Below, in pieces: positions 258 to 59,645 of a stretch of 64,000 nt of DNA. The translations under genes and the position numbers were made by a program. How positions within the stretch are numbered: position 1 is the stretch's first letter; every line of letters begins with the position of its first letter. The notes beneath the pieces are model-generated. The model was not told the DNA's origin, made no database searches, and was given only the letters and a program-made list of their open reading frames with translations. Source of the stretch: Eledone cirrhosa (Eukaryota); NCBI GenBank assembly GCA_964016885.1, contig OZ024743.1:173414001-173478000 (forward strand), given 5' to 3'.

Positions 258-960
258 TATATATATTTAAATTTGGTGGTTTACCAGTGGTTAGAATTGG
301 TCATTCTGCAATGTTAACCATGACATACTAGTTGTCAATTTCTGTTACTCAAGTTTAAGAATCTGAGTAACATCGACCAAGGAGTGTCTCAGCATACAAT
401 TGTTTCCAACTCAACATATAGGTAACTGCTTCAAGTTGTTCTTAGGGGGATCTTTAGAAAGTTCTGCAATCGATAATCCATGGAGTAATTACAATTAGAT
501 AATCAGTTTCACAAATACACTATTCATGTTTCATCAATATGTGAAGGTATATATATGTGCAAAAGGTTCAGTAAGTCCAAAGAAAACTGGTGGGAGTACC
601 AATGTAAGCACTCGATGCAGAGCAGAGTGTATATAATAACAGGCCTAGAATCGAACAGATGCACGTATCCCGAACATTACAAGAAAATAATCATTATAAA
701 CACAAACAAAGGCAAAAATAAAATATTCTAGGCCATGATTGGTCATTCTATAGGCTTGTTTGTGTCTGGCTTGTTTGTCTTCAGATTTGATGTGATTTTT
801 GTTGTGTTAACACTGGTCTGAGGATCAGTCAGACTTGGAGTCTGGTCTGGGATGATGACCCCCAGATCATGACCCGGCTGCCTGGGAAACATTTGTAACT
901 GGGTTAAGCAAGAAATCTCATATGTAACACCTCTACTTTGTTCTTATTATATTTATATAA

Positions 961-1147
961 GGCGGTGGATTGGCAGTATCGGTAGAGGGTCGGACACTAG
1001 GCTTTGACGTATAGAGTTACGCCCCTTGCCATTCTGAGTTCAAATCCGGCCGAGGTTAACTTTGCCTTTCATCCTTACAGGGTTGATAAAATAAAGTACC
1101 AGTAATGTACTGGGTAATTGCTGGCCTTGTGCCTAAAATAGAAACAA
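961..1147 (+). mobile_element. tRNA-derived SINE family 1 with Nin/Deu-like central domain
   Basis: A box TGGCAGTATCGG, B box GAGTTCAAATCC, central TTTGCCTTTCATCC...GATAAAATAAAGTACCAG; flanked by ATTATATTTATATA (946-959, 1147-1160). Confidence 0.88.
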
Positions 1148-1166
1148 TTATATTTATATATATAGG

Positions 1167-1354
1167 GGCGGTGGATTGGCAGTATCAGACGAAGGTCTGA
1201 CGCCATGCTTTGCAGCAAAGAGTTATGGCCCTTTATGGTCTGAGTTCAAATCCCGCCAAGGTTAACTTTGCCTTTCTTCCTTAAGGGGTCGATAAAATAA
1301 AGTACCAGTAATACACTGGGATAATTGCTAGCCTTGTGCCAAAAGTAGAAACAA
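1167..1354 (+). mobile_element. SINE family 1, second tandem copy
   Basis: Same head, core and tail as 961-1147; followed again by ATTATATTTATATA. Confidence 0.88.
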
Positions 1355-1641
1355 TTATATTTATATATATATATAGAGAGAGAGATAGTAATAATAATAA
1401 ATGTGAAGACTAAAATCCAAAGAGGGCTCGATAAGGATAAATATATATCAAATATATAAGAACCCTAGAGCAAATATGTATGTATATATATATATAACCA
1501 AAGATTAATATGGTTCATTGATTACTCAATGAATACAGTTTTAAAATAGATTAAAAGCACTCAACAGTGAAATATTCCTGGAGTTTTAATATTATTCAAA
1601 ATATTAACAAATGAAGATATTCACATAATCAAAATATATGC

Positions 1642-1702
1642 TTTATTATATATATTTCGAAGGTTTGTGTTGTTTTTTTCCAGTACGTCCTCGTCAGATA
1701 AA
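1642..1702 (-). ncRNA. Degenerate type I hammerhead ribozyme
   Basis: Minus: TTTAT-CTGACGA-GG...CCTTC-GAAA-TATATATA-ATAAA; stems I and III intact, stem II poorly paired. Confidence 0.55.
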
Positions 1703-57800: not shown

Positions 57801-58296
57801 AATCAAAACATAATGAATCCTGCATTATAAATATTATTCTTCCACGTTATTCTCATTTCTTCATTTCTTCTCTCACTTAAATATACTTACGCTGTGTATT
57901 TATCCTTTGAAACTCATCTCTTCATGCACACTATTTTCACTGTCAATATATATAATCGTTCTTTCTTTCCTCTTCTATCTTTCTCATTTCTTTCTTCTTT
58001 TTTCTTTTTTTCTCTCTCCTTCACATACCACCTTCTTCCAACATTTAAATAAACCGTTATCTTTTCAACCTTTCGGACACTCATTTGCATACACACTCAT
58101 AATTTAGTATCCCCCTCAATAAATGTAATATCTCCACTATCCAGGAAGCTCCAACCGTTAAGGTTGTCTTTTTTTCCGGGTATGTCAATATTTATTTAGA
58201 AAACAAATCTGTATTTTATCTGATGAAAGAGCACCATAATTTGCCTTGGTTGCCCTTGAAATATGTATAATAAAATAAATATGGTTTTATAAATAT
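54866..58296 (-). mobile_element. PLE with ~1.17-kb inverted 3' UTR copy; decayed GIY-YIG region at 56299-57110
   Basis: Arms 54981-56150 and 57114-58296; RTRNILWFTPPFS, CNCRNKSNSPLNNNCLVKNIVY, YSLLWKII...CSLC...CKHR on the minus strand. Confidence 0.9.
58214..58275 (+). ncRNA. Type I hammerhead ribozyme (counterpart at 55002-55063 has a mutated core)
   Basis: TTTTAT-CTGATGA-AAGAGCACCA...TGGTTGCCCTT-GAAA-TATGTATA-ATAAAA. Confidence 0.8.
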
Positions 58297-58630
58297 TGTA
58301 TATATATATATATCACGATAAATTTACGAAGCCATCAACTCTCGCTATTCCCTGTCAGTAATGTGCTCAAAGGAACCATGGGCTAATCATTTCTGTCAAC
58401 AACTTATTTGGCGAAACAAATCTTTTTGGATTTGTACGTATGTGTTAGATAGTTATCGAGGTATGTATTTACACTTTAATTTATACTTTTAATTATTGTA
58501 TGTCTACTCTGCCTTCCATGGGCTATAGATTCCATACACTGGTGGTTTTTCCCTGTTTGATTGGTGGCGCACTATCTCTCTCTCTAGTGTGTTATCTTTT
58601 CAACATATTGTATTATATATATATAAATAT

Positions 58631-58937
58631 ATTGTTATACTTTGGGAGGGTCAATGCTTTCACTCCAGTTTATTATAAATTAAAGAAAAAATTTTTTTTA
58701 ATTTTATTTTTTAAATTTATAAATTTCCGGTTAGTTGGTTGGCTCCACAACCGTACGGTTGTTCATATATTGTCAAAGTTCTTTCGTCACACATTCTGTG
58801 ACCTCTTCAGTGACTTGAAAGAACTTTGACAATATATGAACAACCGTTCAGTTGTGGAACCAACCAACCGGAAATTTATAAAATTTTTTGAAAAATTTTT
58901 TATTTTTTTATTTATAATAAATTGGAGTGAAAGCAAC
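58631..58937 (-). mobile_element. Fold-back solo PLE terminal repeat with hammerhead at 58772-58814 (minus)
   Basis: Arms ~58657-58785 and ~58817-58934; hammerhead identical to 11398-11440. Confidence 0.85.
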
Positions 58938-59333
58938 ATATATGCATATATGTATATATATACATATGTACGGATATATATACATATGTAAATATATACA
59001 TGTATGTATGTATATATATATACATATATATGTATGTATATATATATATACACATATATATGTATGCATATATATATATTTATATGTATGTATATATATA
59101 TATATATATATATATATGTGTGTGTGTGTGTATGCATATATATATATGTGAGTGTGTATGTATATATATACATTTATATGTATATGTGTAAGTATATATA
59201 TACATTTATATGTATATATATATATGTATGTAGATATATGTACATATTTATGTATTTATATACATGTACGTATATATATACATATATATGTATATATATA
59301 TATATATATGTATATATATATATATATATGTAT

Positions 59334-59645
59334 ATAGAATGGAAAACGAAAAATCAGTAATGCATCAGATCTCAATTTATTGTGTGTTACAATTGTTTTC
59401 CTGGCGAGGATATGCTCTGAATTCAATAGACGTGTCCAAGGAACCTGCGAGTACAGAGTCAGGTCGATCCACACACAGATCGCATCTCAAGATGTTCGCC
59501 GGGGAAACAATTGTAATACGCAATAAATTAAGTTCCGATGCATCACTGATATTTCATTTTCCATTCTATCATACTCTTTTCCGTAGGAGCATAGAGTGCT
59601 CAACCGGCATACTGCCTATGGAAGCATCTGAGCTACCATTAGAGA
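59334..59645 (+). mobile_element. Older fold-back PLE terminal fragment
   Basis: Arms ~59334-59408 and ~59496-59569 (diverged); the + arm has GAAACAATTGTA then AATAAA; no CTGANGA half found. Confidence 0.7.

Follow-up and report, generated by a model that had tools for sequence, protein, structure and literature searches.

A doubled, covarying hairpin at the tail boundaries of Hydra-clade Penelope-like elements as a candidate start signal for reverse transcription

How Penelope-like elements (PLEs) recognise their own RNA, and why their copies carry inverted arms and a tail on one side only, is an open question; one biochemical study has mapped two starts of reverse transcription, not the signal that sets them. 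The question is raised by a 64,000-nucleotide stretch of Eledone cirrhosa DNA (assembly GCA_964016885.1, contig OZ024743.1, positions 173,414,001 to 173,478,000, forward strand; hereafter the window), which is AT-rich, microsatellite-dense animal DNA with many fragments of PLEs and long interspersed elements (LINEs), and in which a short motif, ACTC-Nx-GAGTGCT, recurs in PLE tails. As described below, this motif belongs to a conserved bulged hairpin that full elements carry twice, and element ends mostly fall just 5′ of one or the other copy. Each hairpin, in the sense RNA, is probably a docking site that makes the reverse transcriptase (RT) start 2-6 nt upstream.

The window holds seven exact matches to the motif and no others, at 607-628 (-), 1556-1584 (-), 14436-14478 (+), 22237-22259 (+), 52358-52383 (-), 54928-54950 (-) and 59573-59600 (+), where 0.15 would be expected by chance and 100 dinucleotide shuffles of the window gave at most two; the places and strands all agree with the initial annotation of the sequence. 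The optional leading T of that annotation precedes ACTC in five copies and is replaced by C at 607 and by A at 1556. The hammerhead and AATAAA that it had placed upstream of most copies occur as follows: AATAAA lies 45-57 nt 5′ of six copies, the exception being 607, and a strict hammerhead core ends 64-69 nt 5′ of the motif in three (1584, 14436 and 22237), while the hammerhead of the 54950 copy was found by a relaxed pattern and the copies at 52383 and 59573 have degenerate cores recognised by eye. Upstream of the 607 copy neither the strict nor the relaxed pattern, nor inspection by eye, found a core. A (TA)n run lies 44-62 nt beyond the motif in all seven copies, within or just under the claimed distance of about 45-70 nt to the element end.

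To judge by protein signatures, hammerheads and (TA)n targets, the host elements are Hydra-clade PLEs. The open reading frame (ORF) at 24320-26104 (-) is 5′-truncated, is predicted to encode RT, thumb, a CxCx5C linker and a GIY-YIG endonuclease (independent E-value 1.8e-155), and has 970 homologues. Among 51 aligned homologous proteins the CxCX5C linker is present in 50, CxxC and CxH around the endonuclease E and N in 50 each, RWK in 31 and DKT in 39, many of the homologues being N-truncated, as are the window ORFs, which lack that region; a CCHH motif was not evident in the homologue consensus by inspection without explicit scoring. CxCx5C, RWK, DKT and CxxC/CxH are given as diagnostic of the Hydra clade in PMC8557442, where Hydra PLEs also share the hammerhead, (TA)n targets, inverted 5′-truncated arm and one-sided tail (Craig 2021). 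A Neptune/Nematis identity was rejected, the CX2-5CxxC linker of that group occurring in only four of the 51. Within the window the linker is intact at 24320-26104 and 42154-42564, and one Cys is lost at 56323-57074; a GIY-YIG match at 56302-56667 falls just under the Pfam cut-off. Canonical hammerhead cores (by pattern match) and TA flanks are present, and the cores match File S2 of Craig 2021 by eye; Rfam did not score those on the ORF strand. Hydra ORF pieces occur at six places, two of them upstream of hairpins: a broken 3′ part at 56323-57074 (-), contiguous through its 3′ untranslated region (UTR) with the 54928 hairpin, and a C-terminal fragment at 2885-3073 (-; independent E-value 3.7e-10), whose link to the 1556 hairpin is suggested by order and strand. 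Family homology ties the hairpins at 47731 and 22237/52358 to Hydra ORFs as well; for those at 607, 14436 and 59573, and for the other window variants, no ORF link was found. The motif is shared by many PLE families, the initial annotation having spoken of several, but all belong to one clade, and a second PLE type in the window lacks it. No relatives were seen in viral contigs, and no solved structure matched the Hydra profile.

The relation of the motif to the whole element becomes visible in other hosts, in which a profile search yielded at least 78 metagenome loci (the best 80 of 478 being confirmed) and 22 bin loci, in 81 families. In marine loci the motif mostly reads GCTC…GAGCACT (after hammerheads, GCTC-Nx-YN-GAGC(A/G)CT), and ACTC/GAGTGCT is a local variant of this hairpin, which is common in other marine animal loci. 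Downstream of 26 hammerheads that lie upstream of an ORF, at least one strict motif was found in 20 and two within 230 nt in 15, against control counts of 1 on the other strand, 0 upstream and 0.18 in shuffles. Full elements carry two tandem hairpins, placed between the hammerhead and the start codon. The first, hairpin 1, begins 44-79 nt 3′ of the hammerhead, hairpin 2 follows at a spacing of 55-83 nt, and the first in-frame ATG lies 12-39 nt 3′ of hairpin 2 in 14 of 14 cases. Where 200 nt of flank follow a downstream hammerhead (31 cases), at least one motif occurs in 16 and two in three, these three being pseudo-long terminal repeats (pLTRs) that continue into a further ORF start. Protein-coding constraint was rejected as a cause of the conservation, the hairpins preceding the conserved ORF start, although three of 14 have an in-frame ATG further upstream. 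The initial annotation had staked the motif on enrichment over shuffled controls and on its not being confined to one family by descent; the enrichment is strong, in the window and in the hammerhead flanks alike, and the motif extends over many families and hosts with the compensatory changes described next.

The pairing of ACTC with GAGT noted in the initial annotation stands, but the freely varying loop does not. The motif is a conserved bulged hairpin with a 4-bp lower stem, a 2-nt bulge on the 3′ side, a covarying upper stem and an unpaired RCT. A scan of the window for this structure (4-bp stem, 2-nt 3′ bulge and upper stem) gave 11 matches against 0.8 in shuffles (maximum 3, n=30); it added the variants GCTC/GAGCCCT, ACTY/GAGTACT and ACTC/GAGTTCT, and at its threshold it misses 54928 and 59573. 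Two further GCTC/GAGC variants stand directly after fold-backs, at 32020 and 34170. One match of the scan, at 36732-36765, was set aside as probable chance. Hairpin instances were selected on the lower stem only, without upper-stem pairing as a criterion. With a 2-nt bulge, an upper stem of at least two pairs forms in 27 of 32 hairpin-1 families (shuffles: mean 4.5, maximum 12, n=1000), whereas bulges of 0, 1, 3 and 4 nt give such a stem in 0, 0, 2 and 11 of the same families. The first upper pair is Watson-Crick in all 58 instances (48 marine and 10 from the window; 37 C-G, 21 U-A), and the second and third are paired in 48 and 42; permutation means for the three are 44.6, 25.5 and 23.1, and none of 20,000 permutations reached the observed values. 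On a 31-family protein tree without an outgroup, the first pair changed seven times, always on both sides. The interior varies from 6 to 71 nt and could not be aligned with MAFFT, so that pairs were counted by anchoring in scripts, without a covariance model. Lower-stem variants (ACTC/GAGT, TCTC/GAGA and GCAC/GTGC) keep the pairing, lower-stem complementarity being itself the selection criterion. Rfam gave no match on the motif in 12 loci at E<=1, and of 475 matches on the window the 150 listed were all microRNA models on repeats.

The marine consensus also matches tRNA D-arm-like strings in bacterial bins (G002-G005), and in five bins a plain consensus-pattern scan returned mainly chance and tRNA-like matches. 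The motif could be a D-arm relic or mimic of SINE-like (short interspersed element) origin, kept by descent, but as an origin this is largely refuted and we give it hardly any credence. The resemblance does not extend beyond the 4-bp stem and the bases next to it; the lower stem is followed by C or U in all 58 instances, never by the A that occupies tRNA position 14; and the lower-stem variants preserve pairing, not tRNA sequence. No tRNA gene was found in the window and no Rfam tRNA match in the 12 loci. Identity with a tRNA or a tRNA-derived SINE head was rejected, neither a cloverleaf, A14, G18G19 nor a T-arm being found.

In the window, self-comparison identifies many elements as fold-backs, in which an inverted and a direct arm are accompanied by an extension on just one side. 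The offsets from exact-match arm ends to the motif in 11 comparisons are -2, -5, -6, -30, -3, -4, -9, -5, -7, -4 and -18, the last from a tail-less sister copy and not from a fold-back arm; seven of the 11 lie within 2-7 nt, and eight if one substitution is bridged, which turns -9 into -5. Since the inverted arm ends immediately before the motif, the motif opens the PLE tail, and it is the distance from the tail's 5′ boundary (0-7 nt) that is informative, not the distance to the element end that the initial annotation had proposed to measure.

Individual fold-backs show this arrangement repeatedly. A 300-bp fold-back at 14134-14433, with arms 98% identical and a hammerhead core in each (14200-14236 (-) and 14331-14367 (+)), has an inverted arm that ends 2 nt before the 14436-14478 hairpin, which itself has a 6-bp upper stem, a TC bulge and a tail to about 14531 with a second hairpin. 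The fold-back at 21849-22231, again with cores in both arms (21905-21946 (-) and 22130-22171 (+)), ends 5 nt before the 22237-22259 hairpin (tail to about 22321), and that at 59335-59569 (72%) ends 3 nt before the 59573-59600 hairpin, which has an irregular bulge and a TA run 44 nt downstream. Variant hairpins behave likewise. The arm of the fold-back at 32037-32492 ends 4-7 nt before GCTC…TT-GAGCTAA at 31985-32020 (-), and arms end 4 nt before GCTC…TG-GAGCATA at 34138-34170 (-) and before ACTC…TT-GAGTTCT at 47731-47814 (+), which has a 71-nt interior and directly follows the fold-back at 47463-47726. The 31985-32020 variant lacks an ORF link and the 34138-34170 variant both an ORF and a hammerhead link. 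Arms end 5 nt before the ACTT…TT-GAGTACT family, with U-G in the lower stem, at 45637-45663 (+; 9 nt by exact match, with one substitution) and its sister copies at 46229-46255 (+) and 51540-51566 (-). A short inverted piece at 52781-52843 diverges 6 nt before the 52358-52383 hairpin (tail to about 52299), not into a TA run. The exception is the inverted tail-less arm at 57069-58295 (+; 1.25 kb, 92%, core at 58220-58261), which ends 30 nt before its hairpin, possibly through a small deletion.

Reads point to the same boundary at the Hydra element 3′ end formed by the 54928-54950 hairpin and its tail to about 54866. On 54866-55300, 8,084 and 8,002 reads of two restriction-site-associated DNA (RAD) runs pass through the motif into the tail, and 6,667 and 7,528 leave the element for (TA)n at 54962/54970, the 54970 exit lying 5 nt before the motif after by-eye realignment to the 22237 copy. 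Contigs over this interval exit at 54953 (50), 54962 (81) and 54970 (7). The read variants listed fall in the bulge and the interior (54935-54944), and none is listed in either strand of the lower stem.

In other hosts, ends were mapped from 138 hammerhead-like sites, for each of which a reference with a near-identical hammerhead was required (66 had none, and four lay at contig ends); eleven loci duplicating slices of bin G001 were excluded. Among copies lacking hairpin 1, 19 of 28 end 0-6 nt before the position of hairpin 1 (11 references), and among those with hairpin 1 only, six of nine end 0-4 nt before hairpin 2 (five references), where a rough null gives 0.09-0.11 per copy; a looser mapping that mixes distant families gave 19/28 and 5/13. 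Element ends thus fall just 5′ of hairpin 1 in tail-less copies and just 5′ of hairpin 2 in tailed ones. They usually lie at a short TA-like stretch joined to (TA)n, and the 10 nt 5′ of the hairpin contain TAT or ATA in 62 of 76 cases, compared with 67 of 217 control windows further 5′. A short TA match likely seats the primer. That 27 of 28 references hold other TAT/ATA sites further 5′, mostly unused, indicates that the position follows the hairpin.

These last observations also bear on whether the hairpins instead serve expression, as an internal promoter, a translation signal or a folding partner of the hammerhead, with ends falling nearby through TA pairing with the target. Both hairpins do lie in the 5′ leader, hairpin 2 close to the ATG, the distance from hammerhead to hairpin 1 is narrow, and the D. 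virilis promoter is in the pLTR. Pairing with the target alone, however, would not leave the other TAT/ATA sites mostly unused or keep a TA-like stretch at the same offset before both hairpins, and covarying stems of unconstrained length would be superfluous in a DNA promoter element; we regard a role in expression as improbable. Of the three roles that the initial annotation had offered for a cis-element of PLE tails, the conserved cis-element itself holds and an RT recognition stem fits best; no positive support turned up for a promoter or a ribozyme tertiary partner, on neither of which a direct test was made.

We infer action at the RNA level, binding, priming and a dimer from the observed structure, doubling and end positions, in a sequence of steps as follows. 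A read-through transcript crossing into the next pLTR would carry both hairpins, to which two copies of the protein would bind. The endonuclease would cut both strands of the (TA)n target, and each target 3′ end would pair with the UA-rich stretch 5′ of one hairpin and prime cDNA synthesis toward the RNA 5′ end. The two cDNAs would then join head to head into a fold-back with the tail, that is, hairpin 1 and the spacer, on one side only. Hairpin 2 would never be copied at the 3′ end, so that hairpin 1 alone would be seen in a window of truncated copies. A more extended reading is that one RT-endonuclease dimer binds both hairpins on one RNA and primes both strands of the cut (TA)n site at once, that the hairpin is a portable start signal for a telomerase-related RT, and that tandem clade-specific hairpins are the general cause of PLE tails and fold-backs; this is tentative, and we lean slightly against it as a whole.

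The nearest biochemical precedent is PAc (Poseidon_Ac, from Anolis), in which, according to PMC11167929, RT starts internally at two sites whose interval equals the genomic tail, RNA 3′ of the start is needed out to +172, both strands of AT-rich DNA are cut, and a dimer is predicted. PAc and the Hydra elements are alike in the pLTR hammerhead and AT-rich target, with two adjacent internal starts bounding the tail in PAc, and the one-sided 3′ extension with an inverted tail-less arm, a trait of the PAc-type tail, is found here too. They differ in clade and in tail length, which is 30-40 bp in PAc but in Hydra elements about 55-85 nt (marine families) or about 70-135 nt (the window), and the Hydra hairpins lie 5′ of the ATG, doubled and covarying. 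Starts at the tail boundaries have been shown in vitro for PAc only.

A cis RNA structure that sets where copying starts or ends is familiar from the RT-recruiting 3′ structures of R2, LINE and SINE RNAs and from telomerase template-boundary stems. R2 and LINE elements start at the RNA 3′ end with one signal, and the telomerase stem halts synthesis from a position 5′ of the template; the Hydra elements, unlike either, have two like stems 3′ of two proposed internal starts. The telomerase case suggests that the hairpin could be a stop on an antisense RNA template. The observed geometry is just as compatible with this, telomerase RTs form the sister group of PLE RTs, and junction palindromes led to the proposal of an antisense template for Penelope (PMC3846280). 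Yet 3′ ends that are fixed and meet (TA)n through TA microhomology, while 5′ truncation varies, fit priming at the fixed end; PAc copies a pLTR-ORF template from internal starts; and the few wobble pairs favour the sense strand (three G-U to no A-C, with a further U-G in the ACTT/GAGT lower stem). A stop on antisense RNA seems to us a poor prospect.

The remaining alternative is that the hairpin acts in DNA, the GIY-YIG endonuclease trimming longer cDNAs or cutting the element's own pLTR a few bases away from a single-stranded DNA hairpin. Covariation and end positions alone cannot separate RNA from single-stranded DNA, the tail is ascribed 'most likely' to endonuclease resolution by Craig 2021 (PMC8557442), and the D. 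virilis tail is reported to be required for endonuclease recognition (Frangieh 2024; PMC11167929). A fixed double-stranded site is excluded by the interior of 6-71 nt, and internal starts on RNA at the tail boundaries are reported for PAc in vitro (PMC11167929). In addition, hairpin 2 would need to be copied and then removed, and the end mapping found no 3′ ends just past it. Action in DNA is therefore unlikely in our estimation, and the docking of RT on each hairpin in the sense RNA is preferred.

Several points weigh against this preferred reading. The RAD reads are not independent copies, and neither are many of the mapped end copies, which come from the contigs of one host (G001). Ends fall elsewhere in 9/28 and 3/9 copies, 66 of the 138 sites lack a reference, and some references are only related families, two of them in a rearranged contig. 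The upper stem of hairpin 2 is poorer than that of hairpin 1, reaching at least two pairs in nine of 16 families (shuffles 1.8, maximum 6). Folding energies are unremarkable and the hairpin is weak, with z between -2.6 and +1.3 in 17 folds, and the minimum-free-energy structure lacks the bulged form for 607, 14436, 59573 and several short marine copies; the structure would therefore need a protein to hold it. The strand evidence is thin. For families of the window itself no hairpin 2 was observed, as the window contains no 5′ junction, and locus L005 has a single hairpin before its ATG. The PAc precedent comes from a different clade, and its starts are reported inside a stem-loop instead of ahead of one (PMC11167929). 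Finally, the published Hydra-1_Obim sequence has no clear motif by eye.

Hydra-1_Obim is one of six Hydra consensus sequences in File S7 of Craig 2021 (PMC8557442), four of which show the hairpin at the predicted places by eye. The start of Hydra-1_Ajap lies 2 nt 5′ of hairpin 1, and its ATG is preceded by hairpin 2; Hydra-2_Amil and Hydra-2_Ajap continue for about 25 nt past hairpin 1 and end there; and Hydra-1_Crog has hairpin variants at both ends and starts 6 nt before hairpin 2. Hydra-1_Amil stops before the expected start of hairpin 1. In the whole supplement of 584,131 characters, mostly Naiad and Chlamys, three YN-GAGCACT strings occur six times, four of them in the Hydra file, a count from which line breaks can hide matches; these strings are nearly absent from the Naiad and Chlamys sequences. 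The tail, the hammerhead, the clade and, for PAc, the two internal starts are already known. No description of the hairpin or of its doubling was found in the PLE literature, where coverage of key papers and figures is partial: the available portion of PMC8557442 describes no RNA motif other than the hammerhead, that of the published hammerhead accounts mentions no hairpin downstream, and the motif does not appear in those of PMC3846280, PMC2377424, PMC5737381, PMC6765202, PMC7229834, PMC13282606 and bioRxiv 10.64898/2026.07.22.740005. The hairpin occupies the same region as the PLE hammerhead but is a separate element without a catalytic core.

A doubled, covarying hairpin of 20-30 nt from which both ends can be predicted in many lineages of marine animals shows precisely which bases should be mutated or moved, and the origin of PLE tails becomes directly testable. 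The hairpin could also serve as a boundary marker in PLE annotation, as a candidate cis signal for non-autonomous copies and as a point of comparison for telomerase RNA. Were it portable, a compact target-primed RT would gain a very small RNA handle.

Several further features of the window concern tails and Hydra elements. Tail-only insertions at 1385-1471 and 16389-16469 (-) lie between TA-rich repeats and start just before the hairpin, the former carrying a GCTC…TC-GAGCCCT variant at 1423-1471 (-), of which 16389-16469 is a second copy. The 607-628 copy (3-bp upper stem, TC bulge, TA run 50 nt downstream) is probably a tail-only remnant too, and these three were possibly left after loss of palindromic arms or reflect an assembly effect. 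The 1556-1584 hairpin has a tail to about 1497, a hammerhead core at 1655-1697 (-) ending 69 nt before it and a second core at 1744-1780. A second hairpin is predicted in the 3′ half of tails at 14500-14525, 22270-22315, 52300-52345, 54872-54915 and 1505-1535, with some compensatory differences between related copies. Tail-less 3′ ends occur at 14570, 30840 and 44390, 50-65 nt after hammerhead-like cores, and follow the Hydra ORF fragments 15371-15589 (-), 31574-31816 (-) and 42154-42564 (+). Another, at 21130-21324 (-), has a long-stem hammerhead-like core and belongs to the same family as 47491-47664 (84%); it is probably the 3′ end of ORF 24320-26104, linked across two nested insertions. 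That ORF has a 155-bp tandem duplication at 25794-26101 and, at its 5′ end, an inverted duplication of part of its 3′ UTR (23271-23557 vs 26099-26386); degenerate tandem repeats occupy 23376-24372. Among the other hosts, bacterial bin G001 (L130-L163) contains dozens of animal PLE ends, indicating host contamination, and four hammerhead-like matches in it look like chance. On the other strand of locus L078 (2636-2963), two canonical type I hammerheads stand 281 nt from each other, an arrangement resembling a retrozyme repeat.

The second PLE type, with hammerhead cores and fold-backs, is found at 3078-3132, 4492-4539, 11275-11441 and 58630-58937, with an ORF at 3934-4611 (-) that gave no match to the Hydra profile except a weak endonuclease match and had no relatives in the five bins scanned. 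Its tails end in a shared GACCCTCCCAAGTATAAC-like motif, without the hairpin, and the inverted arm at 58885-58937 stops some 50 nt short of the point where the tail of the 11275 copy ends. At 11950-13830 (+), a C/A-rich stretch leads to a hammerhead core (13716-13739), AATAAA and a TA run, a PLE-like 3′ end that also lacks the hairpin. A 190-bp repeat family with A- and B-box-like strings, possibly a tRNA-derived SINE, occurs at 958-1147, 1167-1354, 18771-18960, 21325-21511, 29118-29222, 45056-45199 and 2749-2803, and the 21325-21511 copy interrupts a hammerhead core and has a 15-bp target duplication. At least two LINE families, presumably RTE, with RVT_1 and PHD-finger matches and (GAT)n-type 3′ ends, lie at 4636-6298, 8469-10186, 27312-29083 and 32528-33833, and further stretches of the same kind at 35028-36307, 38854-41046 and 61112-63641.

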